64,000 nucleotides of DNA from Syntrophomonadaceae bacterium. GTDB lineage: Bacteria; Bacillota; Dethiobacteria; DTU022; UBA8154. Below are positions 8,955 to 45,750 of the stretch, one piece after another. The notes beneath the pieces are model-generated. The model had not been told where the DNA came from. It saw only the letters and a list, made by a program, of their open reading frames with translations, and searched no databases. The DNA lies in the NCBI GenBank assembly GCA_003563895.1, contig PWTK01000105.1, positions 15,129 through 79,128 on the forward strand, read 5' to 3'. A program made the position numbers and the translations under genes. Within the stretch, counting starts at the first letter, position 1, and every line of letters begins with the position of its first letter.

Positions 8955-9043
8955 ACCGGTGAAAGACTAAAGCTCTTTACTCTCCCGCAAAAAGGTTGCT
9001 CCGTTTCAAAGGCCTGGAGGCTTGGGGACATACCCTTGCGGCA

Positions 9044-9295: not shown

Positions 9296-9330
9296 ACGAG
9301 CACCCCCTCTCCATTTTACCTTTTCAGGGA

Positions 9331-9717
9331 TTATGTATCTATTCTCATCATATGAGCTTCGGCTTCCACCACCGTTTCTCCATCGGGCATTCTGGTCCAG
9401 GCCTTGATCACAAACAGGTTTCCTTTCTGTTTTTCCGTATAGCACCCGAACCTGATATTTTTTTCGATGGGAACCGGCTTTTTAAAACGCGCGTTCATCC
9501 TGCCCGTAACCGCCCTGTACCCCCTGTTCATGAGGTGGTGCCCGATCAGCTCATCCATGATGGTGATGATCAGCCCACCGTGGAAAACGCCGTCGTAGCT
9601 CTGGTGCACCTCTGTGGGGTTAAACTCGGTAAGGGTGGTCTCCCCTTCATTCCGACATTCGAGCTGCAAGCCTTGCGGGTTATGCGGGCTGCAGCCAAAG
9701 CACATATCATCTCCCAT
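9331..9717 (-). CDS. PaaI/hotdog-fold thioesterase
   Basis: 128 aa. Motif HGGLIITIMDELIGH is typical of PaaI/YbgC-type thioesterases. Confidence 0.7.
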   Translation of the reverse strand: MGDDMCFGCSPHNPQGLQLECRNEGETTLTEFNPTEVHQSYDGVFHGGLIITIMDELIGHHLMNRGYRAVTGRMNARFKKPVPIEKNIRFGCYTEKQKGNLFVIKAWTRMPDGETVVEAEAHMMRIDT

Positions 9718-9740
9718 CCGGATGCTGCACCTCCCAATAT

Positions 9741-10016
9741 TTAAGCATTTTTTTCAATCTCTTTCACTATCTCCTTCGCTTTGTCCAGCCAGGAATATGG
9801 AACGAGCACTTTGATTTCTGCCAGGGGGCCTACGGTCAGGCTGTAAATCTGGCCAATGGCTTCGCTCTGCAGCACAACCGGGATCCCTTCTTCTTTTAAG
9901 CGGCCTTCCAGTATGGAAGCTTTAATGGGGTCTGTTTCGATGATTAAACACCGCCATTTATCTTCTGACACCCTGTCCTCCCCCTCCTGCCCTGAAAATA
10001 AAACAAATACGTACAA
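9741..10016 (-). CDS. DUF2007-like small protein
   Basis: 91 aa. The KASILEGRLKEEGIPVV pattern resembles DUF2007 (putative signal-transducing) proteins. Recognised from memory only. Confidence 0.45.
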   Translation of the reverse strand: MYVFVLFSGQEGEDRVSEDKWRCLIIETDPIKASILEGRLKEEGIPVVLQSEAIGQIYSLTVGPLAEIKVLVPYSWLDKAKEIVKEIEKNA

Positions 10017-10089
10017 AAGCTCGCTGGTTAACAGTAATCTGTTTTCATCCTTCTGATGGTGCCGCCATGCTGCATGATTGTCACATTTC

Positions 10090-10842
10090 TCATTTCTCGA
10101 TCATGTATTCTTTCCCTTCGACAGCCAGCTCTGCCCCGGGGAAGGACGCCCGGGCCTCCCCCAGGAGCCGCGCCTCGTCTTTAGCCGGGTGGAGGTGGGT
10201 TAATAGGAGCCTGCCCGCCCCTGCGCGCTTTGCGGCAAGAGCCGCTTGTTTTGCGCTCATATGGTTGCCGGCACCCCGCTTAATATCTTCCTCCAGATAA
10301 CTGGCCTCGCAGAGAAAAAGAGGGCTGTCGGCGGCCAGCTCTTCCAGCATACCGCAGTATTCCGTATCCCCCGAAAAAGCCAGCAGTTTGCGCCCCTCGA
10401 TCTCAACCGATATGCCAAAACAGCTGACCGAATGCTGTGCCCGGTGGAAAGCAAGTCGGAAAGGTCCAATTTGCGCAGGATCACGCGGCTGCATGCTCCG
10501 GGTTTGGTAAACCCCTTTATAGGGGAGCCTTTCAAATTCCATGGCGGGTTGAGAAGGGGCATAAAGAGGCAGCGGGTCTTTTCTGAGCCCCTGTTCCATG
10601 GAAAAGAGCAGGTTGTAACGGAGAATGAATATATCGGAAACGTGATCGCTGTGCAGGTGTGACAGCACCGCCGCCTGTAGTCGGCTGGGATCCAGGTGGT
10701 GCTGCAGCCTGCTCAGGATCCCATTTCCGCATTCCAGCAGTACATAATGCCCTTCATGTTCCAGAAGATAGCCGGAACAGCCCCCTCCCGCGGATGGATA
10801 TGGCCCGTACCTTCCCAGTACAATTAGTCTCAACATTTCCAC
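10090..10842 (-). CDS. MBL-fold metallo-hydrolase
   Basis: 250 aa with the HLHSDH (HxHxDH) metallo-beta-lactamase motif. Confidence 0.8.
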   Translation of the reverse strand: MEMLRLIVLGRYGPYPSAGGGCSGYLLEHEGHYVLLECGNGILSRLQHHLDPSRLQAAVLSHLHSDHVSDIFILRYNLLFSMEQGLRKDPLPLYAPSQPAMEFERLPYKGVYQTRSMQPRDPAQIGPFRLAFHRAQHSVSCFGISVEIEGRKLLAFSGDTEYCGMLEELAADSPLFLCEASYLEEDIKRGAGNHMSAKQAALAAKRAGAGRLLLTHLHPAKDEARLLGEARASFPGAELAVEGKEYMIEK

Positions 10843-11355: not shown

Positions 11356-13017
11356 TCAAAGCCTCCCCGATCGCAGGATGGCCCACAGCCACCAAAAACC
11401 CATCATGGCGGCGATGATGAACCCGATCTCGGCGATAGGAAAGCGTATAAACAGGGGAGCTTCGACAAATTGCAAGATCAAACACAGGCCCACGATTAAA
11501 CTGGCCAGCACAATGCTAAAGGAAATGCGGTTGACCATATTGTTTAACCGGTGCAAGACGTGATTCAATTCGGATACTTCTACCCGAAACTTTAGTTTGC
11601 CGTCAGCGCTTTTCTCCAGGAAAGAGACCATGCGATCAGGAAAGATTTCCAGCAGCCGTGCGTAGCGTGAAACGTTTCGGGTCAGTTGAGAGGAAATCTT
11701 TTTGACAGAAATCTCGCTGCGCAAAAGGTCTTTTTTTAGCGGTTCCAGCAGTTCGGCGATGCTGAAATCGGGTTCCAGTTCTGAGATCAGCCCCTCCAGC
11801 GTGAGAAAAGTCTTTGCCAGCAGGGTAAACTCGGGGGGCAGGATCACCTTCTGCTTAAATGAGATCTCTATTAACTCGTGCAGCGCATGCCCAAAGTTCA
11901 CGTCTTTTAAAGGGATTTCAAAATATTTTTCCTGAAGCCGCTCCAGGTCCCAGCGCAGGTGGCGTTCATCCGTATCTTCGGTAATAACGCCCAGCTTCAT
12001 AATGGCGTGCAGGACCTGCTCAATATCCCTGGAAAAAAACCCTAATACCAGCCGGTTGAAGCTGCTCCGCTGGTCTTCGTTGATGGAGCCGGCTATTCCG
12101 AAGTCCAGTAAATATAAGGTGCCGTCATCGGTCACGCCAATATTGCCCGGATGGGGATCGCCGTGGAAAAAACCGCTCACAAATATCTGCTTCAGATAAG
12201 CCCGGGTAAGCTTTTCCACCAGCTCTCGAGTGGAATGCCCTTTTTCCCGCAGTTTCTCCGGTTCATTCAGCGTGATGCCGTCCACATGTTCCAGGGTAAG
12301 AACCTTCTGCGTGGTATAGCTCCAGTAAACGGCGGGTATATAAACATAATCTTCATCGGCCAGGCTTTTTTGCAGGCGCTCAGCATTCCTTCCCTCGTGG
12401 TGAAAGTTCAGCTCTTGAAAGATAATTAACTTGAATTCTTCCACGATATCCTTGAATCGGTACATTTTCCCGATGGTTGTATAGCGATCCACGATGGAAG
12501 CGATTTCTTCCAATATGGCGACATCCTGTTCTATGGTCTTGCGGATCCCCGGCCTCTGCACTTTGACAACCACTTTTTCGCCTTCTGTCAGCAGGGCTTC
12601 GTGAACCTGGCCGATGGAAGCGGCCGCCATAGGTGTTTCCGTGATGCTTTCAAAAAGAAACTCCGGGTCATAATGCAGCTCGTTTTTGATGGTTTTTTTT
12701 GCCTCCGCGAAGGAAAAGGGAGGCACCTGGTCCTGGAGGCGCCGCAGTTCTTTAACATAGGCGGGAGGCAGGACATCGGCACGGGTACTTAAGAGCTGTC
12801 CAAATTTAATGAAGGTTGGACCCAACTCTTCAAGGACCATTCTCAGCCGCACGGGCTTGGAGAGCTCCTCTGCCCCTTTCTTCTCCCTGCGCGGGGCCAG
12901 TCGAATGTGCTCAAAAAATTCTTCGATCCTAAAGTCGTGGATGATCTGCCCGAAACCGTGTCGGACCAGTGTGTTTATAATTTTCTGAAACCTCTTAAAA
13001 CGTTTCCTTCTCTCCAA
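11356..13017 (-). CDS. ABC1/UbiB-family atypical kinase
   Basis: 553 aa. ASIGQVHEA and HGDPHPGN motifs, plus C-terminal transmembrane helices. Confidence 0.85.
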   Translation of the reverse strand: MERRKRFKRFQKIINTLVRHGFGQIIHDFRIEEFFEHIRLAPRREKKGAEELSKPVRLRMVLEELGPTFIKFGQLLSTRADVLPPAYVKELRRLQDQVPPFSFAEAKKTIKNELHYDPEFLFESITETPMAAASIGQVHEALLTEGEKVVVKVQRPGIRKTIEQDVAILEEIASIVDRYTTIGKMYRFKDIVEEFKLIIFQELNFHHEGRNAERLQKSLADEDYVYIPAVYWSYTTQKVLTLEHVDGITLNEPEKLREKGHSTRELVEKLTRAYLKQIFVSGFFHGDPHPGNIGVTDDGTLYLLDFGIAGSINEDQRSSFNRLVLGFFSRDIEQVLHAIMKLGVITEDTDERHLRWDLERLQEKYFEIPLKDVNFGHALHELIEISFKQKVILPPEFTLLAKTFLTLEGLISELEPDFSIAELLEPLKKDLLRSEISVKKISSQLTRNVSRYARLLEIFPDRMVSFLEKSADGKLKFRVEVSELNHVLHRLNNMVNRISFSIVLASLIVGLCLILQFVEAPLFIRFPIAEIGFIIAAMMGFWWLWAILRSGRL

Positions 13018-13046
13018 GCTCCCATCACCGCCGCATAAAAATCAAT

Positions 13047-13199
13047 CAGACTATCGGGTTCGCTCAGGATGACAATGAAAGAAGCCCCGCAAAAAAGAGG
13101 TTTTAAAAGGTCACACTTACAAAAAGGCCTTGATCTGCTAAAAAGTTGTATTTTGGGGGCCACTCAACAAGAATTCCCTGAGTTAAGTTGATAATCATG
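13047..13199 (+). mobile_element. MITE-like repeat, copy A (153 bp)
   Basis: CAGACTATCGGGTTCGCTCAGGATGACAATG...GTTGATAATCATG. Flanked by a perfect 9-bp direct repeat AAAATCAAT (13038-13046 and 13200-13208). About 95 % identical to the five other copies. Confidence 0.85.
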
Positions 13200-13212
13200 A
13201 AAATCAATGCTT

Positions 13213-19384: not shown

Positions 19385-19535
19385 ATGATTATCAACTTAA
19401 CTCAGGGAATTCTTGTTGGGCGGCCCCCAAAATACAGCTTTTTAGCAGATCAAGGCCTTTTTGTAAGCGTGACCTTTTAAAACCTCTTTTTTGCAGGGCT
19501 TCTTTCATTGTCATCCTGAGCAAACCCGATAGTCT
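19385..19535 (-). mobile_element. MITE-like repeat, copy B (151 bp, inverted)
   Basis: Reverse complement of copy A. Flanked by a perfect 10-bp direct repeat ATTCTAGAAT (19375-19384 and 19536-19545). It lies between proB and proC. Confidence 0.85.
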
Positions 19536-19721
19536 GATTCTAGAATGGTAAAGTGCCGGGCCTATAGTCATTTCATGTTTGAAGAACCCCAACCCGTCCA
19601 TAGCCAGTGCCATAAAATAAGGATCTCAAAATAACCCCTTCGAAACATGGTAAACATCGGTGCTCACACGACCGCTTTAAAAAGTTTTGCCAAATTTGCA
19701 TAGAGCTTGAGACTAAAGGGT

Positions 19722-22226: not shown

Positions 22227-23519
22227 TCAGCCGCTGTTATCATAACAGGCAGCAAACACTTCCAGGAAAGCCCTTTGCATGTCTTCTTTGTGTCCCAGGC
22301 AGTGGCAACCGCCGCACTGTGTTTTCAGGGCATGAATCAGCCCGGGGTGCTTGGCATAAATCAGTCGAAAGGCCTCGCCAACAGCGTTATCGGCAACCAT
22401 ATCGTTTTGAGCCAGCAAAAGCAGCGAATGATATACCCGCCTGGTCCTGCCGTATTCATCTCCTTGGCGCGGTGAATTGATCCCTTTGATAATGGAGGAA
22501 AGGGATTCTTTAAAAACATTTCCCACGGGATACGCGTGGTTCCCGCACGTGTAGACGATCCCCTCGTGATCCACAAAGAGGTCGCCGTGATATTTCCCGT
22601 GATCATAGGCGTCTTTCCTGCTCATAAAATGGGGGCACTTTAAATCGAACAGGCCCATCCCCGCTTTGTTTTCCAGCTTTTCGTCACCAATTATTGCTGC
22701 ATCTCCAATACGGGAGACGCCCAGCCGCCGCAAGAACAGCTTTCCCTTCTCGTTCCCATAAACCCCCGCATTTGGCGGCACTTTTTTTTCAAATCGCAAT
22801 CCGACCCGTCCCATCACATCCTCAAGAATTCGATTCGTCGGGTCGTCCCACAACCCGCTTGATGTGGCTGTTACCCTCAATTGATAACCGATGGCGTCCA
22901 ACTCATGCCTTTTTCCAAGGCCTTCTTCCAGGCATGTGCCGATGGCTTTCGAGACAACTGCGGCCGGTACGGAATTGGCAACATTTTCATTTGGGCTTTT
23001 TAGGGTGGTGTGGTTGCTGTCGACGCTGAAATATATCCGCACGAGGCCCGCTTCCTTTAAAGAGCGCACAATTTCCCCGGCTGTGCTGTCGAACAGGCCG
23101 GCCCGTTCAAGTATTTCCCGGTTCAACGCTTTGTATTCCCCGTGAGCCCCCATAAGCCCCCCGTTGGTCAGCACGGTAGGGATCAAACCCTTGGAGCATG
23201 AGTATTCGATAAGTTCTAACAAGCTTTTATACTCAATGAATGGTTCCCCCCCTGTCCAGTATGTCCCCACCATTCCCAGGGCAGAGGCTTCGTCTACCAG
23301 CGCCCTCATTTTATCGATGGTGAGCAGGCGCTGCCGGGGTTTTCGGGATCTGGTGGTTTGATTGAGACAAAACTGGCAGTCATTATTGCAGTCGTGGGTC
23401 AGGGAGATTTTAAGCTGTGCTGTTGGTCGAAAAATGTCACCCAATTTGCTTGCACTCCAGTCGTTTTCCTTTTCGAAGTTTACATAAGCGTGAGAATAAC
23501 TCAGGCCCTTAAGTCTCAA
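22227..23519 (-). CDS. radical SAM protein with a C-terminal SPASM/twitch-like Cys-rich extension
   Basis: 430 aa. CNNDCQFC (CX3CX2C) near the N-terminus. Additional Cys clusters CPHFMS...CGNHAYP and CGGCHCLGH. The start codon is a TTG. Confidence 0.8.
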   Translation of the reverse strand: MRLKGLSYSHAYVNFEKENDWSASKLGDIFRPTAQLKISLTHDCNNDCQFCLNQTTRSRKPRQRLLTIDKMRALVDEASALGMVGTYWTGGEPFIEYKSLLELIEYSCSKGLIPTVLTNGGLMGAHGEYKALNREILERAGLFDSTAGEIVRSLKEAGLVRIYFSVDSNHTTLKSPNENVANSVPAAVVSKAIGTCLEEGLGKRHELDAIGYQLRVTATSSGLWDDPTNRILEDVMGRVGLRFEKKVPPNAGVYGNEKGKLFLRRLGVSRIGDAAIIGDEKLENKAGMGLFDLKCPHFMSRKDAYDHGKYHGDLFVDHEGIVYTCGNHAYPVGNVFKESLSSIIKGINSPRQGDEYGRTRRVYHSLLLLAQNDMVADNAVGEAFRLIYAKHPGLIHALKTQCGGCHCLGHKEDMQRAFLEVFAACYDNSG

Positions 23520-23639: not shown

Positions 23640-23991
23640 TTGCAAATATGATTTCACCCCGGTTGGTTTTCTCCTCCCCTTTGACCCCCCACCCCCTTTG
23701 CGCCACAGGGCCCGGATGGTTGTTGAAACGGCTGATCGTTGTGCAGGCCGAGAGGTATGACCAAAACGCTTTCCGTTTAGAATATTATTTCGTTAATCCA
23801 GGAGTTTTTCCTGCTCCAACATGATTCTAAAGAACTATTTCAGGCGGTTCTTTCTGCCGCCCGTTCTTCTCCTTATATATGTATTTAAAAATATTTTTCC
23901 GGCAAAAATATCTTTGCAGGAATTCGCTTGTATATAGAGAACTACTTTTTAATTAATAAAATTTATCCTATAAATAGAGAAGGTGAGTCAG

Positions 23992-25794
23992 ATGACCGTT
24001 AGTTATGTAAATGGAGAGCGAATCTATTACGCTTTTTTGGCCGGGTCCAGGCAGGTCGCCCGCTATAAAGACTTGTTGAACCGTATCAATGTTTTTCCTG
24101 TTTTCGACAGCGACACGGGCAATAATCTGTCTGCCACTTTGAACTACATGGTGGACAGCGTCAGGCCTTCTCCGTGCGCGGGCGAAACTGTCCGTTCACT
24201 GGCTGACGCTTCCTTGAACGGAGCCCGGGGCAACTCGGGCATCATTCTGGCCCAGTTCATTAACGGTCTGTCCCGGGAAATTGGCGATCAAAAGCGTCTC
24301 ACCACCCGCGCTTTCGGGGATTCCATGGTGCGTGCCGTGCCCTACGCGTACGGTGCTCTTTCCAGGCCGGTGGAAGGGACCATGCTGACGGTTCTCAGGG
24401 AGTGGGCAGAAGCGGTGAACAACTGGGGGAAAGAAACGAATGACTTCGGAGAAGTCCTCCTGAATTCCCTGGAACGGGCCCGGGTTTCCCTGAAAGATAC
24501 CCGGGAAAAGCTGAAGGTGCTGAAAGATGCAGCTGTGGTCGATGCCGGCGCCCAGGGTTTCGTTCTTTTCCTGGAAGGGGTCGCCGAATTATTCAAAACC
24601 GGGGATATTAAGTCCCTTATGCGGGAAAAAACCCCACCGCTGGCCCTGCAGGAGGAACCCCTGCTGGAGGGAATGCGTGGAGACATGGACTATCGTTTCT
24701 GTTCTGAAGCGCTTCTTACGGGAAAGAACATGGATCACCAGCTGGTCCGAAATACTGTTGAGCCGCTCGGTGACTCCTTTATTATCGCCGGAACCCCGGA
24801 AAAAGCCAAAATTCATATCCACACCAACCAGCCGGAGAAATTCTTTTTCAAATTGATCAGCTTCGGGTCTGTCATCAACCAGAAAGTCGACGATATGTTG
24901 AAACAGTACCAGGTCGTCCATGAACGCAGGCACGATATCGCCCTGGTGACGGATTCCATTGCCGATCTTCCCCAGGAAGTGATCGACAACCACCAGATCC
25001 ACGTGATCCCTGTTAACCTGGTAATCGAGGGGTCCAATTTTCTGGACAAAATCTCCGTCAAGCCCGACCAGATTTACTCCATCCTCGACCAGGTTAAAGA
25101 ATATCCCACCTCCTCCCAGCCTTCCTTAAATGCGGTGCAGCGGCAGCTGTCATTTTTGTGCAGCCACTACCAATCCGTCATCATGATCTCCGTTTCCAGG
25201 GAGTTGAGCGGCACCTGGAATGTATTTAAAAGCGCAGCCGAAACGCTGCAGGAGAAGGGGAAAAAGATTTCGGTCATCAACTCCAAGCTGAACTCGGGAG
25301 CCCAGGGTTTGCTGGTGATGGAGGCGGCGGAGCTGATTGCAGCCGGAAGGGAACACGATGAAATTGTGCGGATCATCGAGCAAATAATACCGACAATCAG
25401 GATCTTCGTCAGCGTAGCCACTTTTAAGTACATGGTGCGGGGAGGGCGGGTCAGCCCGATGAAGGGGTTCATCGCCAACCTGTTAAACGTAAAGCCCATA
25501 GTCTCCCTGGATGAAGAGGGGCGCGGCCTCGCTTTTGATAAAGCCTTAACCCAGCGGACCAACACGAATAAGATCCGGAACATTGTTAAGTCCATCCAGG
25601 ATGAGCGCTCCGTGAACAAATACTGTATCGTGCATGCAGGAGCCCCCGAGAAAGCTTTTTCTTACCAGCGGCTCTTTGCCCGGCTGCTGGGGAAGCAGCC
25701 GGAATACGTGGTGGAAATCTCCCCCATTGTGGCCTTAAGCGCCGGCCTGGGAGCGGTAGCCGTCTGCTTGATGGAAGATGCAGAAGCGGTATAA
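23992..25794 (+). CDS. DAK2/DhaL-domain plus DegV-domain fusion (FakA/YloV-like fatty-acid kinase subunit)
   Basis: N-terminal DhaL-like motif DSDTGNNL. The C-terminal half is DegV-like (IALVTDSIADLP). RBS GAAGGTGAG precedes the ATG at 23992; the track ORF begins at a GTG at 23983. Confidence 0.75.
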   Translation: MTVSYVNGERIYYAFLAGSRQVARYKDLLNRINVFPVFDSDTGNNLSATLNYMVDSVRPSPCAGETVRSLADASLNGARGNSGIILAQFINGLSREIGDQKRLTTRAFGDSMVRAVPYAYGALSRPVEGTMLTVLREWAEAVNNWGKETNDFGEVLLNSLERARVSLKDTREKLKVLKDAAVVDAGAQGFVLFLEGVAELFKTGDIKSLMREKTPPLALQEEPLLEGMRGDMDYRFCSEALLTGKNMDHQLVRNTVEPLGDSFIIAGTPEKAKIHIHTNQPEKFFFKLISFGSVINQKVDDMLKQYQVVHERRHDIALVTDSIADLPQEVIDNHQIHVIPVNLVIEGSNFLDKISVKPDQIYSILDQVKEYPTSSQPSLNAVQRQLSFLCSHYQSVIMISVSRELSGTWNVFKSAAETLQEKGKKISVINSKLNSGAQGLLVMEAAELIAAGREHDEIVRIIEQIIPTIRIFVSVATFKYMVRGGRVSPMKGFIANLLNVKPIVSLDEEGRGLAFDKALTQRTNTNKIRNIVKSIQDERSVNKYCIVHAGAPEKAFSYQRLFARLLGKQPEYVVEISPIVALSAGLGAVAVCLMEDAEAV

Positions 25795-25915: not shown

Positions 25916-26067
25916 CATGATTATCAACTTAACTCAGGGAATTCTTGTTGAGTGGCCCCCCAAATACAGCTTTTTAGCAGATCAAGGCCTTTTTGTAAGT
26001 GTGACTGTTTAAAACCTCTTTTTTGCGGGGCTCTTTCATTGTCATCCTGAGCAAACCCGATAGTCTG
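25916..26067 (-). mobile_element. MITE-like repeat, copy C (152 bp, inverted)
   Basis: Flanks ATCATATAA and ATAATATAA match at 8 of 9 positions. Confidence 0.85.
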
Positions 26068-26166
26068 ATAATATAATATGGCGTCTCCATTAACCCGGAA
26101 ACGCGGCATGTTCTTACCCCGAGAGAATATCTTGCAACGAGGCTCAATCAGGATGGGGGTAGTTGT

Positions 26167-26964
26167 GTGGTCGAACTTTTTTTGCAGGCAGCAGCAGTCG
26201 TTTTCATTTATTTCCTGGCCTTTTTCCTGGTAGCCCAGGTTATTCGAAACAATTCCATCGTGGACATGGGTTGGGGTGCCGGATTTGTCGTTGTGACAAT
26301 GGCAACCCTTTTCAGTCAGGGTGCCTTCGCCGAGAGAAATCTGGTCCTGGCTCTCCTGGTAACCATATGGGGCGGAAGGCTCACCTACCACATTGTCCGG
26401 CGGAACTGGGGCAAACCGGAAGATTTTCGCTACGCCAAATGGCGGGAAGAATGGGGCCGCTGGCTTGTGCCCCGGGCCTTTTTCCAGGTTTTCATGCTGC
26501 AAGGCGCGTTGATGCTGATCATCGCGTACCCCATTATCCTCATCAACGCTTTCCCGCAGCCGGGCCTACGCTACCTGGACTTTCTGGGGGTTTTGGTCTG
26601 GGTCATCGGCTTTTATTTTGAAGCCGTTGGGGACAAACAGTTGGCCCAATTCAAACAGGATCCGGCCAACAAGGGACATGTCATCAAAACAGGGCTCTGG
26701 AAATACACGCGCCATCCCAATTATTTCGGCGAGGCCACCATGTGGTGGGGCATATTTTTGCTGGCGCTCTCTGTGCCCACGGGATGGAGCGCTGTCATCA
26801 GCCCGCTGACCATTACGGGCATGCTGCTTTTTGTGTCAGGGGTGCCCATGCTGGAGAAAAAATACCAGGACAATGCCGAGTTCCAGGCCTATGCCCGCGT
26901 CACCAGCAAATTTTTCCCCTGGTTTCCCCGGAAGTCCTCTGGCCAGGAGGGAGGGAGCGATTGA
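26167..26964 (+). CDS. DUF1295-family membrane protein (steroid-5-alpha-reductase / ICMT-like fold)
   Basis: 265 aa, polytopic. Motif [15 protein letters not shown] is typical of DUF1295 and methyltransferase-like membrane enzymes. Confidence 0.7.
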
Positions 26965-27362
26965 TGCAGTTCATAAAGCTCTACCTGGTGGTGCTGGGAG
27001 CTTTTTTCCTGATCGACATGGTCTGGCTGGGCCTGGTGGCCAGAAATTTTTACCGGGACCAGCTGCGTTTTTTGATGAAAACAAATATAAACTGGGGCGC
27101 CGCCATTGTCTTTTACCTGCTTTTCGTGGCCGGGCTCGTCTATTTTGTGGTGTCTCCCTCCCTTACCGACGGAAGCTGGCTCACCGCGCTGCTGGCAGGG
27201 GCTTTTTTCGGCCTTGTCACTTATGCCACCTATGATTTAACCAACCTGGCAACCCTCAAGGACTGGCCCCTCAAGGTTACGCTGGTTGACCTCGCCTGGG
27301 GTGCCGTGCTCTCCGGAACTCTTTCTGCCATCGGTTTTTTCTACGGGAAAAATATGGCGTGA
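26964..27362 (+). CDS. DUF2177-like small membrane protein
   Basis: 132 aa with four hydrophobic helices. Its ATG overlaps the stop of the previous gene (ATGA), indicating co-transcription. Confidence 0.55.
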   Translation: MQFIKLYLVVLGAFFLIDMVWLGLVARNFYRDQLRFLMKTNINWGAAIVFYLLFVAGLVYFVVSPSLTDGSWLTALLAGAFFGLVTYATYDLTNLATLKDWPLKVTLVDLAWGAVLSGTLSAIGFFYGKNMA

Positions 27363-27818
27363 AGCCTTTGCGGTGAATCAGCCATTGCAAGATTTGTTAG
27401 TTTGTTTCTCGGTTCGCTGCATGCCGGATAAAATTTTTTTTGCCGCGCCTTCGCAGCTCCCCCCTTTGTCCCCGGGAGCAGACCGCTGTCACGAAAGCTG
27501 AGCCGGAAAGAGATCCGGAGTTTTGTTTGCCACAAAAATCCGGGTTGTTTAACAGGCATGAGCTCGCCTCTCAGGCAGCGCTCGTGTTTTTTTGTGGGAT
27601 CTAAAAAAAGGGGGGGGCGTCCTGCAGCCGGTGTTTTCTTTTCAGGGTAAGCAGCCGGCTTTTTAAAATAATCGCTGGAAGATATCGAGAGGATATGCTA
27701 TAATGGGTTAGCTATTTTAATTATTCACCGCGATACTCAGCCTTTATCCTCTATAATCGCATATTTCAGCCCTTAGATGCCATGCATCCTATTCTAAAAT
27801 TGGAACAGGGATGGAATC

Positions 27819-29465
27819 ATGAAAACCTCCACTACACACCAGGCAAAAAAGGCCTCTACGGCCATCAGTCGCTGCGGCATGATCTCTACGGCCTCAGCTG
27901 CTGCCACCGAGGCCGGCGTAAAAATGCTGAAGCTGGGAGGCAACGCTGTTGACGCTGCCGCAGCGGCTGCATTTTGCCTCGGAGTGACCGAACCCCAGGC
28001 ATCAGGGCTTGGGGGGCAAAGCATGATCCTGCTTTACCGCCAGGGAGCAGATCCGGAGGCCCTTACCCTGGACGGTTCATCGCGTGCCCCCTACGGCATT
28101 GATCCGCAGTATACGCCGGCCCAAAAGATAAAAGTGGGGATCCAGGCCACCACCGTTCCCTCCACACCGGCAGCGCTTGGCTATTTGTTGGAAACTTACG
28201 GCACCTTTCCTCTCGACCGCGTCCTGGAGCCAGCTATTGAAGCAGCGGAGAAAGGTTACAAAATTACGGCGCTCCAGCATCGGCTGCTGGCCCGCGAAGC
28301 CTCAAAGCTCCTGCAAGATGAACAGGTAAAGTCCGTTTTTTTCAAAAACGGCCAACCCCTGAACGCCAGGGAAACCGCTGTCCAGCCTCAACTTGCAGAC
28401 TGCCTGAAGCGCATCTCCAGGGAGGGGTGGCGGGATTTCTACGTGGGGGTGATTGCAAGAGAAATCATCAAGGATATGGAATGCCGGGGGGGCTTGATTT
28501 CCCAGGCCGACCTCAACCAGATCCCCTATCCCGTTCAGAGGGACGTTTTAAAGGGCTGCTACCGCGGCAGGGATGTTTACACCTTCCCACCGCCGGGAGC
28601 GGGGTGGGCGCTTGTCCATATCCTTAAGACCCTGGAGGCGTTCGAGCCATGGGAAGTGGTGCCGCCGTCACCCTTGGCGCCGTTAATTCTGGCAATGGTC
28701 TTCAGGGCCGCCCTGATGTGCCGGGAAAGGATGCCTGTAGACCCGGCGCTTTTTCCACAGGTTTCTCACGAATTGAAACTGGACAGGGCCAGCACCGAGC
28801 AGATCGCTGCCCGCATTCGTGCCGTTCTTTCCTACCGCGATAAAGAAAATTTTTCACCTCCCGGGGCAAGCGGGGAAACAACCCACCTTTCTGCAGCCGA
28901 TGCTTTCGGAAACACCGTAGCGATCACCCAGTCCATCGAGCTGTTGTTCGGCGCCAAGACCATGGCCCGAGGCCTGGGATTCTTTTACAATAATTATATG
29001 AGCGCCTTTCAGTACAAGGACATGATGCACCCCTTCTTTTTACTGCCCGGTGGGCGTCCGTGGAGCAGCGCAGCCCCCACCCTGCTCTTCCAGGACGGCC
29101 GGCCCTTCCTGGCCCTCGGCAGCCCGGGGAGCGAACGCATTTCAACATCACTGGCCCAGGTCATTACGCGGGTCGTGGATGCCGGGCAGGATCTGTGGGC
29201 AGCCATAGAGGCGCCGCGACTGCATGCGGGCAGTTCCGGGAAAGTGCTCATCGAAAAACGTTTTTCCCCGGAGGTAATGGATACCCTGCAGAGAGCAGGT
29301 TTCACGGTTACCACACGGGGAGCTTACAGTTATTTCCTGGGCTGCGTTCAGGCCGTGATGCTGCCGGAGCCCGGAAGAGACTTTTTTTACGGCGTCTCCG
29401 ATCCCCGACGGGACGGTGCTGCGGGAGGCCCCCAATACCTGGAGGAGGTTGAAAAGCAGAATTGA
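27819..29465 (+). CDS. ggt: gamma-glutamyltranspeptidase-family protein (no signal peptide, so predicted cytoplasmic)
   Basis: 548 aa. Autoprocessing/nucleophile region GETTHLSAADAFGNTVAITQSIE. Preceded by an extended -10 TGCTATAAT and an RBS AGGGATGG. Confidence 0.85.
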   Translation: MKTSTTHQAKKASTAISRCGMISTASAAATEAGVKMLKLGGNAVDAAAAAAFCLGVTEPQASGLGGQSMILLYRQGADPEALTLDGSSRAPYGIDPQYTPAQKIKVGIQATTVPSTPAALGYLLETYGTFPLDRVLEPAIEAAEKGYKITALQHRLLAREASKLLQDEQVKSVFFKNGQPLNARETAVQPQLADCLKRISREGWRDFYVGVIAREIIKDMECRGGLISQADLNQIPYPVQRDVLKGCYRGRDVYTFPPPGAGWALVHILKTLEAFEPWEVVPPSPLAPLILAMVFRAALMCRERMPVDPALFPQVSHELKLDRASTEQIAARIRAVLSYRDKENFSPPGASGETTHLSAADAFGNTVAITQSIELLFGAKTMARGLGFFYNNYMSAFQYKDMMHPFFLLPGGRPWSSAAPTLLFQDGRPFLALGSPGSERISTSLAQVITRVVDAGQDLWAAIEAPRLHAGSSGKVLIEKRFSPEVMDTLQRAGFTVTTRGAYSYFLGCVQAVMLPEPGRDFFYGVSDPRRDGAAGGPQYLEEVEKQN

Positions 29466-31633
29466 AAATTGCCATTATTTATAACCGGGACAGCCAAGCG
29501 GTTATCAATCTATTTGGCATGCCGAACCGTGAAAAGTACGGCTTACAGACCATTAAACGCATAAAGGAGGCCCTTGAAGCACATGGCCACCAGGTGCAGG
29601 CTTTCGAAGGCGATAAGAATATCATTTATGCCCTGGAAGATTTCATGCCTTCGGTCATCTCGGGAGAGCGGCCGGGCCTGGTTTTCAACCTGAGCTACGG
29701 CATACAAGGGCGGGCCCGCTACACCCATATCCCGGGAATCCTGGAAATGCTGGGCATCCCTTACGTGGGCTCCAGCCCTGAAACCCATGCCATCGCCCTG
29801 GATAAGGTGCTCACCAAAATTGTACTGACCCAGAAAAACCTTCCTACCCCGAAATTTACCGTGCTGGAAAGCCCCGATTTTGAGTTCCCCCTGCAGGAAG
29901 AAATGACCTTCCCCTTCATCGTTAAGCCACGGGATGAAGCCGTCTCATTGGGGATCAAAATCGTTCATGATGAAGCGGGGCTGCGGGAATGGGTCAGGGC
30001 TATTTACGAGATGTTTCAAGCCCCGGCCCTGGTGGAAGAGTACATCGAGGGTCGAGAGATCAACGTGGGACTCCTGGGCAACAGTCCCGTGGAAGCCCTG
30101 CCGCCGGTGGAAATGATTTTTTACAGGGGGCCGCGCATTTATACGCATGAAGACAAGGTGAAAAAAAGCAGGCGCCGCATAGACAAGGTGTGCCCCGCCT
30201 CCCTTGATCCCGCCCAGGAAGAGCTCTTAAAAACCCTGTCCATCCAGGCCTTTAACGCGCTGGGCTGCTTTGACAGCGCCCGCGTGGACTTTCGCCTGGA
30301 CAGAGAAGGCAATCCCTATATTCTGGAAGTGAACTCCATGGCCAGCCTCGGTCCGGACGCCTCGTACGTTTTTGCCGCCGAAAAGATGGGGTTGGACTAT
30401 GCAGCCCTGGTGAACCGCCTCATTGAAATCACCAGCCAGCGGTACTTCGGCCCAATTATTGCGGATGACGGCCTGGACGATTTATACAAGGGCAGGGGAA
30501 AGGCCGTTTTTACCCATCTCATACAGAGGCGTGACCAGATGGAAGAGGAACTGAAAGGGTGGACCAACCTCCCCAGCTGGACCGAAGACGCGGCAGGGCT
30601 GGGAGCAGTGATCAAGCGGCTTGAAGCGAAAATGCATGATTTGGGGTTGCATTCCATAAAAGAGCTCACGAACCAGCGTTTTGCCTGGGCCTGGCAGACC
30701 GCGCCCGGGCTCGAAGACGGCACGCTCCTGGTGGCTTCTGTCGATGTTCCGCGCAGCGATACCAGCGGTTATCCCACCCCATTTCGAAAGGCGCCGGAGC
30801 AGATTTTTGGTGAAGGCATAGCCTCCAGCCGCGCCGGGCTGCTCTGTTTGCTCGAAACCTTACAGGCTTTAAAAACAGCAGGGTGCCTGCACCACATCCC
30901 TTTGGGCGTGTTTATCTATGCCGACGAAGGTCGGGGGATGCGTTACAGCAGCCCGACCTTCTCCCAGGCCGCTGAAAAAGCGGGCCAGGTTCTTGTGATG
31001 CAGTCGGGCCTTCACGGCGGGAAAGTGGTGGATCAGAGAAGGGGGTCGAGAAAATTCAGCATTCTTGTGGAAGGGGCTTTTCAGCGTATTGGCTACCACC
31101 GAGGGCCGGGAGATCTTATGAACTGGTTTTTGCAGCGAGCCGCGCGGGTGGGCAAACTCAGCATGCCGAAAAAGCGGTTGACGGTGGCCGTGCAAGAAGT
31201 GCATTCAGAACGTTACAGCGTGCTGCTCCCCCACCGCATTCGCGCCACGGTTTACGTAACCTTCCTGGATCCTGCATTGGCCGGTGATGCCGAAACCGAA
31301 ATACGAAAAATATTTACTCCGACGGAAAAAGAAGAATTTTTATGTTACGTGGAAAAGCTGGAAGAACGCCCCGCCCTGACCCGCTCGGAAAGCGCTGCCT
31401 CTCTTATCTCCAAGCTCAAGGCCATCAGTGCAGATTGGAAACTGCCTTTCGGCGTTGATTCCAGCCTGCTGCCTTCGGCAGCGGGGGTCGTGCCCGAGGG
31501 GATACCCGTATTATGTGGTCTCGCCCCGTCCAGCCAGAACATGTACACCCCCTTTGAATCGATCCAGCGCGGAGAACTTTTGCAGAGGGCTCTGCTGCTG
31601 ACATTGTTTTTAATGGAGGGACAGGTGGAATGA
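29462..31633 (+). CDS. fusion protein: D-Ala-D-Ala-ligase-like ATP-grasp (N-terminal) plus M20-peptidase-like domain with substituted metal ligands (C-terminal)
   Basis: Residues 1-330 have Ddl/ATP-grasp architecture (IVKPRDEAVSLGI...EEYIEGREINVG...ILEVNSMASLG). Residues 400-723 align to M20 motifs, but the His of the HxD motif is Ser (LLVASVDVP) and the Asp/Lys of GxxDxK are Ser/Arg (GIASSRAG). Its start overlaps the ggt stop by 4 nt. Confidence 0.7.
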   Translation: MKIAIIYNRDSQAVINLFGMPNREKYGLQTIKRIKEALEAHGHQVQAFEGDKNIIYALEDFMPSVISGERPGLVFNLSYGIQGRARYTHIPGILEMLGIPYVGSSPETHAIALDKVLTKIVLTQKNLPTPKFTVLESPDFEFPLQEEMTFPFIVKPRDEAVSLGIKIVHDEAGLREWVRAIYEMFQAPALVEEYIEGREINVGLLGNSPVEALPPVEMIFYRGPRIYTHEDKVKKSRRRIDKVCPASLDPAQEELLKTLSIQAFNALGCFDSARVDFRLDREGNPYILEVNSMASLGPDASYVFAAEKMGLDYAALVNRLIEITSQRYFGPIIADDGLDDLYKGRGKAVFTHLIQRRDQMEEELKGWTNLPSWTEDAAGLGAVIKRLEAKMHDLGLHSIKELTNQRFAWAWQTAPGLEDGTLLVASVDVPRSDTSGYPTPFRKAPEQIFGEGIASSRAGLLCLLETLQALKTAGCLHHIPLGVFIYADEGRGMRYSSPTFSQAAEKAGQVLVMQSGLHGGKVVDQRRGSRKFSILVEGAFQRIGYHRGPGDLMNWFLQRAARVGKLSMPKKRLTVAVQEVHSERYSVLLPHRIRATVYVTFLDPALAGDAETEIRKIFTPTEKEEFLCYVEKLEERPALTRSESAASLISKLKAISADWKLPFGVDSSLLPSAAGVVPEGIPVLCGLAPSSQNMYTPFESIQRGELLQRALLLTLFLMEGQVE

Positions 31634-32454
31634 TACCCGGCACACCGCTTCCGGTGGTGCTGTCCATGCCTCACGGCGGAACAAAAGTGCCGCCGGAACT
31701 AAAGCACAGGTGCCGGCTGGGCCTGGCGGCCATTCTTCGCGATGGGGATACCTGGGCACGGCATCTGTTTGACTTTGAGGAAATCACAGCAGAAGGCTGC
31801 GTGGATACAGAGGTGGCGCGGGCCGTGGTTGACATGAACCGCTCTCCTGAAGATCTGCCCCCGGCAAATCCCGACGGCGTGGTCAAAATATCAACGGTGC
31901 TTGGAGAGCCCGTCTGGCAGAGCCTTGGTGGACTGACGGGGGACGAGGTGCGCCTGCTGCTGGAAAAGTATCACCGGCCTTATCACCGGCAAATTGCCAG
32001 GATGTGTGAAAAAAGGGCGGCCATCCGATTGGGCCTGGACTGCCACACCATGCTGGCACAAGCGCCCCCTGAAAAAGGGGAAGAACACCTTCGCCGACCT
32101 TTAATCTGTCTCAGCAACCTGGGAGACGATTCCGGAGAACCTGACGGACTGCCCGTCTCAGCTCCACCAGCGCTCCTGCGGGCCCTGCAGCATGCACTGG
32201 AAAGGGTATTTGAAAGCGATCCCCGTTTTGCCGGGGCTCATCCGGACGTCGTTTTAAACCGGCCTTTCCGGGGCGGGTTTATCGTAAAAAATCACAGTGC
32301 TGCAGGGGAAGTGCCCTGGATACAGGTGGAATTTAACCGCTCTCTATACCTGCCGGCGCCGTTTCCCATCGCCAAAGAGCCCGACCCCGACACAGCCGGG
32401 AAGTTGCGATCGCTTGGAAAAGGGCTTTTGCTGGCTGTCAGGGAAGTGCTCTAA
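31630..32454 (+). CDS. N-formylglutamate amidohydrolase (FGase, PF05013-like) family protein
   Basis: 274 aa. The N-terminal VVLSMPHGGTKVPPEL matches the FGase family signature. Its start overlaps the upstream stop. Confidence 0.65.
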   Translation: MIPGTPLPVVLSMPHGGTKVPPELKHRCRLGLAAILRDGDTWARHLFDFEEITAEGCVDTEVARAVVDMNRSPEDLPPANPDGVVKISTVLGEPVWQSLGGLTGDEVRLLLEKYHRPYHRQIARMCEKRAAIRLGLDCHTMLAQAPPEKGEEHLRRPLICLSNLGDDSGEPDGLPVSAPPALLRALQHALERVFESDPRFAGAHPDVVLNRPFRGGFIVKNHSAAGEVPWIQVEFNRSLYLPAPFPIAKEPDPDTAGKLRSLGKGLLLAVREVL

Positions 32455-32532
32455 AAACTGTAAAAAAGTAAGAGGAAGGCTTAAACGTCAGGCAACTCCC
32501 CTGCAGGAAATTTTCCGGTGCTTGTGGCATAC

Positions 32533-32563
32533 CCCCCTAATAATGCAACTGGGGGGTTTTTTG
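32533..32563 (+). terminator. Rho-independent terminator of the ggt operon
   Basis: CCCCCC-taataatgcaact-GGGGGG followed by TTTTTT. Confidence 0.75.
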
Positions 32564-32579
32564 TGCCGGAAAGAAAAAT

Positions 32580-32729
32580 CAGACTATCGGGTTTGCTCAG
32601 GATGACAATGAAGAAGCTCCGCAAAAAAGAGGTTTTAAAAGGTCACACTCACAAAAAGGCCTTGATCTGCTAAAAAGCTATTTTAGGGGCCACTCAACAA
32701 GAATTCCCTGAGTTAAGTTGATAATCATG
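32580..32729 (+). mobile_element. MITE-like repeat, copy D (150 bp, most diverged)
   Basis: Flanks AAGAAAAAT and AAGAAAAAA match at 8 of 9 positions. It is inserted exactly between two convergent terminators. Confidence 0.85.
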
Positions 32730-32791: not shown

Positions 32792-33178
32792 TTATCCCTG
32801 TTTTTCTTCACTGCCCGAAACCGTAGCAAAGCTGACACCCTGTACGTGGACATTAACGTGGGTAACCCTTAAACCCGTCATTTTCTGCACCGCTTTATTT
32901 ACATTTTCCTGAACATTCCATGTTACGTCGGGTATGCGGTAGCCATAGTTCACGATCAGGTATAGATCAATGGCTGCTTCTTCCTCGCCAATCTTCACCC
33001 TGACACCCTTGGAAATGTTTTTGCGGCCCAGCGCCTCGGCAATTCCCCCTGCAATCCCTCCGCTCAGGCTGTTCACGCCTTCCACCTCTGCCGCGGCAAG
33101 GCCGGCAATCATGGAAACCACTTCGTCAGTAATGCGAACTGAACCATGCTCAGAAGGAATCGTTCCCTCCCCAGTCAT
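32792..33178 (-). CDS. Asp23/Gls24-family envelope stress protein
   Basis: 128 aa; the N-terminus IPSEHGSVRITDEVVSMIAGLAAAEVEGV is typical of Asp23. Confidence 0.85.
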   Translation of the reverse strand: MTGEGTIPSEHGSVRITDEVVSMIAGLAAAEVEGVNSLSGGIAGGIAEALGRKNISKGVRVKIGEEEAAIDLYLIVNYGYRIPDVTWNVQENVNKAVQKMTGLRVTHVNVHVQGVSFATVSGSEEKQG

Positions 33179-33729: not shown

Positions 33730-34773
33730 TCAATATTTCGCCAGTACTTTAAGCGCGTTCCACAGGGGCTCAGGCTTGAAATCCCACATGTAAGAGGTTT
33801 CGACGATATTGGGATTGTTGCAGTGGTTGCAGTGCAGCGCCTGTTTTTTCAATCGTTCATATGCGGGACTCTCTAATATGTCGCCCAGGGGCTCTTTTCT
33901 GACATTTCCCAGCGGGGCTGAGGGGTTTGTGCAGTTTGCTACTTCACCGCCGGGGTACACGAGGAGGGAGATCTTGGGGAGATGGCAAACGTAAGATTCG
34001 CGCCTCGTCAGAAAGCGCTCCAGGTAGGTATAAGAATTGTTTAACGGGTAGCGATTTTTTTTCAGCCCTGCAAGGGCCCGGGCGGCCGCTGTTTCCCCCT
34101 CCGCCTCCCAGCCCTTGACGGAATGCCCCGTTTCCGGGGAAACCCCCACTTTCACCGGGCAAACGTAAAAAGACCCCCGCAGTTTTTGGCAGAGCTCGGC
34201 CATCTCGAGGAGCCGATCTTCGTTGCCCCTGTGCAAAAGACAGTTCACCATCACCTTCATCTCGGGGTAACGCCTGTTGAGGGTTTCCAGCGCGCCCACC
34301 ACCCGCTGGAAAAGCCCCCGGCAACCCCGCTGCCGGTCGTGCTCTTCGTCCGGATAGTCCAGGGAGACAACCACCGAATCCAGTTTATCATGAAGCTCCC
34401 CTGTACGCTCCTCCAGGTAGTAACCGTTGGTAAGGAGGGTGGTGATGAAGCCTTCCCTTTTGGCCGCGAACAAAATCTCTGCCAGGTCATCCCGCAGCAG
34501 CGGTTCCCCTCCCCAAAGGCCCACGGCTTTGAAACCGTGCCTGCGGCCCTGACGGTATAGGCGGCCGATTTCGGCAGCGCTCATTTCCGAGGGGGAACGG
34601 TTGTCCCGCCAGATGCACGTGGGACACCTGCAGTTGCAGCGGGTGGTTACCAGGTGCGAAAAATAGAAAGGCCGCTGCCGAACCCTGCTGGCTGCCAGGG
34701 CAACAATCAACCGGTTCATTCCGACGAAAGCTCTCTTCACTTTTGCCCCTGAAGCATACGGAGCATTCCTCAT
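33730..34773 (-). CDS. radical SAM/SPASM-domain protein
   Basis: 347 aa. TTRCNCRCPTC (CX3CX2C), G-rich motif GLWGGEPLL, and C-terminal auxiliary-cluster cysteines CHLPK...CTNP...CNHCNNPN. Strong RBS GGGGGAGG. Confidence 0.8.
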   Translation of the reverse strand: MRNAPYASGAKVKRAFVGMNRLIVALAASRVRQRPFYFSHLVTTRCNCRCPTCIWRDNRSPSEMSAAEIGRLYRQGRRHGFKAVGLWGGEPLLRDDLAEILFAAKREGFITTLLTNGYYLEERTGELHDKLDSVVVSLDYPDEEHDRQRGCRGLFQRVVGALETLNRRYPEMKVMVNCLLHRGNEDRLLEMAELCQKLRGSFYVCPVKVGVSPETGHSVKGWEAEGETAAARALAGLKKNRYPLNNSYTYLERFLTRRESYVCHLPKISLLVYPGGEVANCTNPSAPLGNVRKEPLGDILESPAYERLKKQALHCNHCNNPNIVETSYMWDFKPEPLWNALKVLAKY

Positions 34774-42669: not shown

Positions 42670-42710
42670 AAAACACCCTCCCCTGCAATAAATATGTTAT
42701 TTTCGAAAAT

Positions 42711-42863
42711 CAGACTATCGGGTTTGCTCAGGATGACAATGAAAGAAGCCCCGCAAAAAAGAGGTTTTAAAAGGTCACACTTACAAAAAGGCCTTGATCT
42801 GCTAAAAAGCTGTATTTGGGGAGCCACTCCACAAGAATTCCCTGAGTTAAGTTGAAAGTCATG
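42711..42863 (+). mobile_element. MITE-like repeat, copy E (153 bp)
   Basis: Flanks TTCGAAAAT and CTCGAAAAA match at 7 of 9 positions. Confidence 0.85.
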
Positions 42864-42999
42864 CTCGAAAAAACAGCGCCATAGCAAAAGATTCAATTCC
42901 CATGGCCTTGGGACATTCCTGCTCAGCGCACCCTATCCGTGGGGCACTTGCCCCGGCACACCCCTTTGAGCTTCGGCAGTCGAGCGGCAGCCGCTTCAT

Positions 43000-45102: not shown

Positions 45103-45597
45103 GTTCCTGCACCCTTCCCGTGAATGCTCCAACGACAGTGGGGCGGGCAAAAGTCTCACATCAGCCCCCGCGAAACCTGGTGGCGGTCGGTTTTCCCGAG
45201 CATTCGAAGCCCCGCGGACAGGCCAAAGTGCAGTTCCAGCTTCCGACCCGAAAGATATTTTCACGATTCTAATACGCATAATTTCATGAATGGTCTATTC
45301 GATTATTTCGTTAAAGCCTTCGCCAAACCCTTCTGCTTTGAGACAAATAATTCTGACATTTGACCGGGAGTTGGCCCACCCCGCCACTTACCCCTACAGC
45401 TGGCGTGAGGATCCACTGCAGGCCGCCGGGGTCCAACCTGTAAAAAGGTCGCCTTTCCAAACCGACAGCAAACTTACAGCAGCAGCACGGTCCATTCCGC
45501 TACAGGCGGCAGAGATAAAAGGAGGATTTTCTGAAATCATTGTTGAAAGAATTAAATTAAAAGGTTCTCCGGGTTTTTGCTGAACGAATTAAATTAT

Positions 45598-45750
45598 CAG
45601 ACTATCGGGTTTGCTCAGGATGACAATGAAAGAAGCCCCGCAAAAAAGAGGTTTTTAAAGGTCACACTTACAAAAAGGCCTTGATCTGCTAAAAAGCTGT
45701 ATTTTGGGGGCCACTCAACAAGAATTCCCTGAGTTTAGTTGATAATCATG
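45598..45750 (+). mobile_element. MITE-like repeat, copy F (153 bp)
   Basis: Flanks TTAAATTAT and TTAAAATAA match at 7 of 9 positions. It sits in the divergent rtcB / mtaD promoter region. Confidence 0.85.

Follow-up and report, generated by a model that had tools for sequence, protein, structure and literature searches.

Introduction

Bacterial systems in which an ATP-dependent ligase is combined with its cognate hydrolases are already known, as are the enzyme superfamilies of which they are built. Among these systems are the metabolism of poly-gamma-glutamate (gamma-PGA), with the PgsBCA/CapBCA proteins and the degrading classes gamma-glutamyltranspeptidase (GGT), CapD and PghP/PghL (PMC6506827), the RimK-RimB pair, the Rlo-type ATP-grasp/7TM-transglutaminase systems, for which polyglutamylation has been discussed (PMC12239564), the cyanophycin system and the amino-group carrier pathways of the LysX/LysK type. 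The closest single enzymes are the D-Ala-D-Ala ligases Ddl and VanA and carboxypeptidase G2 (CPG2), an M20 dinuclear zinc peptidase. Here we describe a locus of a Syntrophomonadaceae bacterium (assembly GCA_003563895.1) situated in a 64,000-nucleotide stretch of contig PWTK01000105.1 (positions 15,129 to 79,128, forward strand), which we call the window and whose numbering is used throughout. The locus encodes a GGT-like protein, a fusion of a Ddl-like ATP-grasp ligase to an M20-like domain, and a protein of the N-formylglutamate amidohydrolase (FGase) family. A first-pass annotation had placed these three genes, together with two genes for membrane proteins, in one transcript and had read the proteins as a self-contained pathway of a ligase and hydrolases acting on a gamma-glutamyl or N-acyl amino-acid conjugate or small peptide. 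In this study, we show that the core of the locus is a three-gene module which recurs in several phyla, that the catalytic residues of its ligase and hydrolases are intact and that the metal ligands of its M20-like domain are lost. A pathway of the kind first suggested fits all findings made on the sequences, and we tentatively propose what its product may be.

Results

Conservation of the module

The core of the locus consists of three genes, one of which encodes two domains:

27819-29465, + strand: GGT-like gene, 548 residues (Pfam G_glu_transpept, 1.3e-113, 381 bits)
29462-31633, + strand: ATP-grasp/pseudo-M20 fusion gene, 723 residues, TTG start
29462-30460, + strand: N-terminal half of the fusion (residues 1-333), Ddl-like ATP-grasp amidoligase domain (Dala_Dala_lig_C, 1e-35)
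30494-31633, + strand: C-terminal half of the fusion (residues 345-723), CPG2-like M20 domain without metal ligands
31630-32454, + strand: FGase-like gene, 274 residues (Pfam FGase, 1.8e-43), M14-like fold

Relatives of the fusion were sought in one genome per GTDB species. The fusion is encoded in 211 species; 80 loci were retrieved and their neighbouring genes compared by tblastn and by clustering of open reading frames (ORFs). In 51 loci, called well-flanked here, no less than 2.5 kb of sequence lay upstream of the fusion and 3 kb downstream of it. The GGT-like gene lies adjacent to the fusion and on the same strand in 37 of these, both the GGT-like and the FGase-like gene stand beside it in 32, and neither partner is present in 14; an FGase-like gene without a GGT-like gene was found in none. 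The module spans Bacillota, Izemoplasmatales, Planctomycetes, Verrucomicrobia and Desulfobacterota, so that the co-conservation of the three genes expected by the first-pass annotation is seen across many phyla. Its gene order differs between lineages: GGT-like, fusion, FGase-like in Bacillota, and fusion, GGT-like, FGase-like in Izemoplasmatales, Scalindua, Verrucomicrobia and Desulfobacterota. The existence of two orders speaks for selection acting on the three genes as a set and against common descent of one arrangement. No fourth conserved gene emerged from the 80 loci, only the GGT-like and FGase-like genes being recurrent.

A word-indexed search retrieved homologues that cover the whole length of the fusion with 55-70% identity, many of them from alkaliphilic or soda-lake Bacillota (Alkaliphilus, Evansella, Alkalihalobacterium, Alkalihalophilus pseudofirmus, Alkalicoccus, Heliorestis, Desulfitispora). 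The nearest relatives (66-69%) belong to Syntrophomonadaceae metagenome-assembled genomes (MAGs) with 'CSSed' isolate names, probably from soda-lake sediment. Distant ones (47-52%) occur in Izemoplasmatales, Candidatus Scalindua, Verrucomicrobiales, Thermodesulfobacteriota, Pirellulales, Zixiibacteriota and Thiomargarita. In locus L003, from a close relative, two fusion paralogues, 69% identical (4075-6195 and 8001-10121 of that locus), stand on either side of the GGT-like gene in the order fusion, GGT-like, fusion, FGase-like; L043 also has a pair. Such pairs hint at two ligation steps or at a recent duplication.

Two other kinds of gene were found directly 5' of the fusion, in loci that lack the GGT-like and FGase-like genes (coordinates are those of each locus):

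L053, 7285-7995: class-I glutamine amidotransferase (GATase)-type gene, overlapping the fusion
L064, 6684-7259: class-I GATase-type gene
L077, 7279-7968: class-I GATase-type gene, overlapping the fusion
L032, 6870-7985: soluble PGA_cap (CapA-family) gene, 15 bp away
L018, 118-897: soluble PGA_cap gene, ~390 bp away

The GATase-type proteins, which come from different lineages, are nearest to GMP-synthase (GuaA) glutaminase subunits, with scores under the respective cut-offs, and the PGA_cap proteins are weakly MslH-epimerase-like. In the three GATase loci the two amidase genes may have been displaced by the gene of another hydrolase of gamma-glutamyl amides, and both kinds of neighbour are compatible with gamma-glutamyl amide chemistry. 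The GATase-type genes also bear on an amidotransferase with the logic of CarA/CarB or MurT/GatD, in which a carboxylate activated by the ATP-grasp domain would receive ammonia from glutamine through the GGT-like protein or the GATase. GGT enzymes are able to hydrolyse glutamine, and the abutting or overlapping GATase genes would suit such a reaction. Against it stand the loss, from the GGT-like protein, of the residues by which glutamine or a gamma-glutamyl donor is held at its alpha-amino group, the FGase-like partner, which is left unexplained, and the small number of loci with a GATase (3 of 80). We regard this alternative as highly unlikely.

The ligase half of the fusion

Ddl is the best PDB sequence match of the ligase half (3.4e-31), and Foldseek superposes it on Ddl structures with TM-scores of ~0.8. 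Only Ddl structures match the fusion, over its N-terminal half; no PDB structure spans both halves. The residues that bind ATP and Mg2+ and stabilise the transition state are invariant in 20 of 20 family members (K115, K155, E192, E199, K232, R274, D276, E289 and N291, corresponding to K97, K144, E180, E187, K215, R255, D257, E270 and N272 of DdlB). The Escherichia coli DdlB sequence served as alignment reference, and its numbering agrees with literature positions. The D-Ala-binding residues of Ddl are replaced: E15 by R or K, H63 by Y79 and S150 by V161, and the position of Y216 is variable (K/T/I/S/V). The NCBIfam Ddl models score far under their cut-offs (171 against 243 bits for the best, NF002378, and 163 against 246 for TIGR01205). 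Because the catalytic residues are invariant, the D-Ala residues replaced and the model scores low, the ligase half looks like an active amidoligase that is not a Ddl; the first-pass annotation had described it as of the D-Ala-D-Ala-ligase type.

When the ATP-grasp domain was used by itself in an exhaustive HMMER search, it fell into a separate subfamily recognisable by the loop FN(L/M)(S/A)YG(I/V)QG..RYTH, whose other members are standalone proteins of ~330-360 residues or are fused to a 7TM_transglut module. A biochemically characterised member of this subfamily was not found in the literature. The nearest relatives without an M20 domain (P0279, P0281, P0272 and P0288; 44-46% identity) are C-terminal fusions to the 7TM_transglut membrane module, the Pfam description of which ('usually fused to an inactive transglutaminase') matches the 7TM inactive-transglutaminase RloB of Rlo systems. 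Proteins with two Ddl-like ATP-grasp domains in tandem, of ~650-700 residues, were also seen (P0282, P0284, P0298).

The resemblance to Ddl raises a cell-wall explanation, according to which the fusion would be a Ddl variant or a ligase recycling murein peptides and the amidases would cut stem peptides at gamma-D-Glu. The domain is indeed matched best by Ddl and VanA, in sequence as well as in fold, and the gamma-D-Glu linkage does occur in stem peptides. However, neither the Ddl specificity residues nor Ddl-level scores are retained, the context holds no mur or ddl gene, and the complete module occurs in at least five MAG loci of Izemoplasmatales/'Mollicutes' (L051, L052, L055, L056, L059), with partial modules in others. 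This lineage is described as wall-less (10.1101/2020.11.18.388454). On residues, scores and the occurrence in wall-less hosts a bona fide Ddl or cell-wall role was rejected, and the explanation as a whole strikes us as barely credible.

The M20-like half of the fusion

A degenerate M20-like domain, as first proposed for the C-terminal half, was recovered in profile searches. The family profile of this half matches CPG2 (1cg2) over 320 positions (E 9.5e-17), the catalytic and the dimerisation (lid) domain both being homologous, and the NCBIfam PRK07338 hydrolase model (NF005602) matches at 1.2e-18; Pfam Peptidase_M20 gives 20.3 bits, under its cut-off of 24.6. All five zinc ligands of CPG2 are substituted (H112 by S, D141 by S, E176 by G, E200 by Q and H385 by Y), the last of these being called by eye because the HMMER alignment ends before that position. 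The substitutions are family-wide, and only a deep non-Bacillota clade keeps the first histidine (H112). The general-base Asp-Glu pair (DEG) is retained, and new invariant residues have appeared, among them R357, R527, H591, R636 and R703. The domain is probably a module for substrate binding, dimerisation or both. The substrate class of CPG2, N-acyl-glutamate, gives a hint at what it may bind.

The same ancestry can be turned into a different explanation, in which the ligase would attach glutamates to a protein or cofactor, at the C-terminal carboxylate or at that of a side chain, in the manner of polyglutamylation of the RimK/S6, tubulin or folate/F420 type, the pseudo-CPG2 domain would dock the acyl-glutamate end and both hydrolases would act as deglutamylases. 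CPG2 hydrolyses pteroyl-glutamate, so that a homologue without activity could be a binding site for a terminal aryl- or acyl-glutamate, and the nearest ATP-grasp relatives outside the fusion family share the YGIQG..RYTH loop and carry the RloB-like membrane module (PMC12239564). Set against this, no candidate gene for an acceptor protein is conserved beside the module, the ligase resembles Ddl and not RimK or TTL, and a three-gene module that moved between phyla would need its acceptor to be present everywhere. We consider such tail addition rather unlikely.

The GGT-like protein

The GGT-like protein was first described as a GGT without a signal peptide. Only ~17 hydrophilic residues precede its conserved domain; the signal peptide is indeed absent and the protein would thus be cytoplasmic. 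Intracellular GGTs are known in extremophiles (PMC8062742). The donor pocket departs from a canonical GGT. Aligned to E. coli GGT (2e0w) and compared in 49 orthologues taken from the module, the protein keeps the nucleophile (Thr354, E. coli T391, in a GE|TTH motif; Thr in 49/49) and the alpha-carboxylate-binding Ser462-Ser463 of the WSS motif (S in 41/49 and 48/49). In the alpha-amino-binding pocket Q430 is changed to Y (48/49) and D433 to A (43/49); G484 is S in 49/49, and R114 is S, with an Arg two residues further on, so that substitutions at these four sites are found in 43-49 of the 49 orthologues. The score of 336 bits with TIGR00066 lies under the cut-off of 357.85. By these sequence criteria the protein belongs to the GGT family of N-terminal nucleophile (Ntn) amidohydrolases, has an atypical donor pocket and is not a canonical gamma-glutamyltranspeptidase.

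Changes of the D433N and G484A type move GGT toward glutaryl substrates, which have no alpha-ammonium group (PMC8062742). CapD, a member of the GGT family that acts on gamma-PGA and is 32% identical overall to the GGT-like protein, also lacks D433 and has N instead. In view of a pocket without alpha-amino-binding residues, we infer that the natural acyl donor is something other than a gamma-glutamyl group with a free N-terminus, more likely a glutamyl residue that is N-substituted or internal, or a glutaryl-like acid. A role of the glutathione type is unlikely for the same pocket.

The FGase-like protein

Fold and family motifs of FGase are present in the third protein, as the first-pass annotation had it, and its predicted active-site motifs are invariant. 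It is not an equivalog of HutG, judging by the model score (TIGR02017, 74 bits against a cut-off of 279). A hut-type gene context was likewise not seen, no fourth cluster recurring beside the module in the 80 loci, where most neighbour clusters are unannotated. Neither by sequence nor by close fold does the protein belong to the PghP/PghL gamma-PGA hydrolases.

Transcription unit and flanking sequences

Upstream and downstream of the core the following features were found:

26167-26964, + strand: DUF1295 gene, 265 residues (Pfam, 6.5e-77)
26964-27362, + strand: DUF2177 gene, ATG at 26964, ~132 residues (Pfam, 1.5e-46)
27696-27704, + strand: candidate extended -10 element TGcTATAAT (TGnTATAAT), by sequence reading, ~115 nt 5' of the GGT-like start
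32531-32562, + strand: intrinsic-terminator-like hairpin (ACCCCCC, 13-nt loop, GGGGGGT, T6 run), by sequence and RNA fold

All five ORFs assigned to the + strand are Pfam-supported and can be taken as real genes, and the three codon overlaps reported between them are present: the stop of the DUF1295 gene overlaps the ATG of the DUF2177 gene by one base (TGATG, 26962-26966), the TTG start of the fusion overlaps the GGT-like stop (TTGA, 29462-29465) and the FGase-like start overlaps the fusion stop (ATGA, 31630-31633). The two overlaps within the trio speak for translational coupling. The five genes nevertheless do not form one transcript. A gap of 457 bp with several terminator-like hairpins separates the DUF2177 gene from the GGT-like gene (27363-27818), and neither DUF1295 nor DUF2177 was found near the module in any of the 80 related loci. 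On these two grounds the five-gene operon was rejected and the two membrane proteins were removed from the unit; the layout is one of two genes followed by three. DUF1295 is a membrane protein of the steroid-reductase/ICMT-like kind; its gene and the DUF2177 gene look like a unit of their own, with no relation to the ligase module. As a terminator of the module the downstream hairpin is plausible, although 'strong', the word first used for it, overstates a C/G-rich stem of 7 bp. The TGcTATAAT element may serve as promoter of the three-gene unit; a scan for consensus promoters left it out because its -35 element is poor. No riboswitch or leader RNA was found 5' of the module in the window or in eight related loci, with the single exception of a Bacillaceae-1 RNA (79 bits) in L019, from Alkalihalobacterium chitinilyticum, at 6201-6267 directly 5' of the GGT-like gene.

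Activators of the NtrC (sigma-54) type lie within ~5 kb of the module in nine loci, directly upstream only in the Alkalicoccus loci. Sigma-54 control was nonetheless rejected, since a search 5' of the module found no -24/-12 promoter, either in the window or in 20 loci. These observations bear on a catabolic or salvage explanation, in which the hydrolases would degrade an imported glutamate-containing compound and the ligase would re-use or activate an intermediate. Hydrolases make up two thirds of the proteins, many hosts are, by their record titles, peptide- or necromass-fermenting sediment bacteria, and nearby activators would be in keeping with such a role. Yet, besides the missing promoter, the conserved neighbourhood includes no transporter, it is hard to see where a ligase that spends ATP would fit into a route of hydrolysis alone, and the fusion is the most conserved and most often solitary component. 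We therefore judge a catabolic function to be quite unlikely.

A dispersed repeat of ~155 nt, from CATGATTATCAACTTAACTCAGGGAATTC to CCTGAGCAAACCCGATAGTCTGAT, has six copies in the window with >90% identity:

25916-26072, + strand: repeat copy
32578-32729, - strand: repeat copy
~13010-13200, - strand: repeat copy
~19385-19545, + strand: repeat copy
~42675-42865, - strand: repeat copy
~45560-45750, - strand: repeat copy

The first two copies listed are inverted relative to each other, are both intergenic and bracket the five genes. A composite transposon was considered and rejected, the repeat being dispersed over the window and the bracketing probably a coincidence. No Rfam family was found for it, the sole match being a weak one to CRISPR-DR10 (E 0.48) at 26007-26043; it may be an element resembling a miniature inverted-repeat transposable element, or a small RNA. 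The flanking genes at 32792-33178 (-), 23983-25794 (+), 22227-23519 (-) and 33730-34773 (-) were judged by eye from their translations to encode an Asp23/alkaline-shock-like protein, a DAK2/DegV-like fusion and two radical-SAM-like proteins.

Discussion

We infer substrate, direction of flux and physiological role of the module from the features reported above. The explanation that we favour, although we hold it with somewhat less than even confidence, is that the trio is a cytoplasmic make-and-break module for a gamma-glutamyl (N-acyl-glutamate) compound, either a di- or oligopeptide or a short polymer, which may be started on a primer. The fusion would be the synthetase: its Ddl-like ATP-grasp domain would activate a carboxylate as acyl-phosphate and join it to an amine, and its zinc-less CPG2-like domain would most likely bind and position the N-acyl-glutamate terminus and possibly contribute to dimerisation. 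The GGT-like Ntn hydrolase would cut gamma-glutamyl amides in which the alpha-amino group of the glutamyl residue is not free, being N-substituted or internal, and the FGase-like enzyme would take the acyl group off the remaining N-acyl-glutamate. A gamma-Glu-Glu linkage is the simplest product on which all three proteins could act; it could lie in a gamma-glutamyl di- or oligopeptide, in short gamma-PGA or in a tail of this kind on a primer. Gamma-glutamyl-glutamate is favoured because it could be made by an ATP-grasp ligase, could be cleaved by a GGT-type enzyme whose pocket accepts a blocked amine, and is itself an N-acyl-glutamate, the substrate class of FGase and CPG2.

A more specific version takes the product to be a cytoplasmic oligo- or poly-gamma-glutamate made independently of PgsB, a cyanophycin-like reserve or anionic buffer polymer. 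The ATP-grasp synthetase would elongate the chain with its glutamate terminus held by the dead CPG2 domain, the polymer would be broken down by the GGT-like enzyme, acting as an endo-hydrolase, and by the FGase-like one, acting as a gamma-Glu-Glu dipeptidase, and the genes would have been transferred horizontally among alkaliphilic, soda-lake and marine-sediment bacteria. We regard this polymer version as unlikely. From the habitat of many hosts one may further guess at a role as osmolyte, counter-ion or storage compound in alkaline or saline surroundings.

Several points weigh against the make-and-break module that we favour. None of the residues in the ligase half could be assigned to a specific ligand. 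The fusion gene is solitary in ~27% of the well-flanked loci, and its association with PGA_cap and GATase genes is limited to two and three loci, respectively, of the 80. As the GATase proteins are nearest to GMP-synthase-type glutaminase subunits, a role as ammonia donor fits them equally well. The canonical alpha-carboxylate-binding Arg114 is not at its aligned position in the GGT-like protein, and the acyl group may thus not be glutamyl at all. Finally, the apparent enrichment in alkaliphiles is biased, since matches were ranked by similarity to a query from such a lineage.

The first-pass annotation had not recognised the pathway as a described one, and in full text of the literature we found no description of the trio, of the ligase/pseudo-M20 fusion or of the altered GGT pocket; an earlier in-silico mention, as in the amidoligase survey of Iyer et al. 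(2009), is possible. If our explanation is true, the module constitutes a small, undescribed pathway, spread widely by transfer, for an isopeptide compound based on glutamate. It would contribute a new ATP-grasp specificity and a clear example of a ligase that has taken up a metallopeptidase domain as a non-catalytic part. It could then bear on the handling of cytoplasmic anions, buffering and nitrogen reserves in alkaliphiles and sediment anaerobes. Should the product be an ordinary dipeptide, the result would be a modest improvement of annotation. A third contribution would be a GGT subfamily with an altered donor pocket, of biocatalytic interest because engineered GGTs with similar changes become glutaryl acylases. 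The proposal is directly testable, because the hosts include cultivable alkaliphiles (Alkalihalophilus pseudofirmus, Evansella, Alkalicoccus, Alkaliphilus).

Compared with the known systems, the ligase of the module shares with Ddl and VanA the fold and all ATP/Mg2+ and catalytic residues, but differs in its invariant loop FNLSYGIQGRxRYTH, the fused pseudo-M20 part of 380 residues and the absence of a cell-wall gene context. The M20-like domain is homologous to CPG2 and keeps the Asp-Glu pair; in contrast to the peptidase, it has lost the zinc ligands and is fused to a ligase. With gamma-PGA metabolism the module has in common that two of its proteins are in, or by fold nearest to, two of the degrading classes and that a CapA-family gene lies directly 5' of the fusion in two loci. 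Its GGT-like pocket, however, is unlike that of both exo-GGT and CapD, its ligase is of the ATP-grasp type, and all its proteins would be cytoplasmic without a membrane anchor; a PgsB/CapB-type, Mur-ligase-like synthetase with membrane PgsC/PgsA was found neither in the window region nor in the conserved neighbourhood. RimK-RimB and the Rlo-type systems follow the same logic of an ATP-grasp glutamate ligase with a cognate trimming hydrolase, whereas the module has a Ddl-like ligase, Ntn and M14-like rather than retropepsin-like hydrolases, and no membrane component. The LysX/LysK-type pathways likewise combine an ATP-grasp ligase with an M20 protein for a gamma-glutamyl-linked or N-acyl amino acid; in the module the M20 part is dead and fused to the ligase, carrier protein and intermediate-modifying enzymes are absent, and the ligase is Ddl-like instead of RimK/LysX-like. 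The cyanophycin system (CphA, the cyanophycinase CphB and isoaspartyl dipeptidase) differs from the module in having a Mur-ligase-like M domain and hydrolases of other families, and PDB searches detected no sequence relationship with CphA. It is likewise a self-contained cassette, in which an ATP-grasp-containing synthetase with an accessory polymer-binding domain is joined by a depolymerase and a dipeptide-level hydrolase, one of them of the Ntn type.

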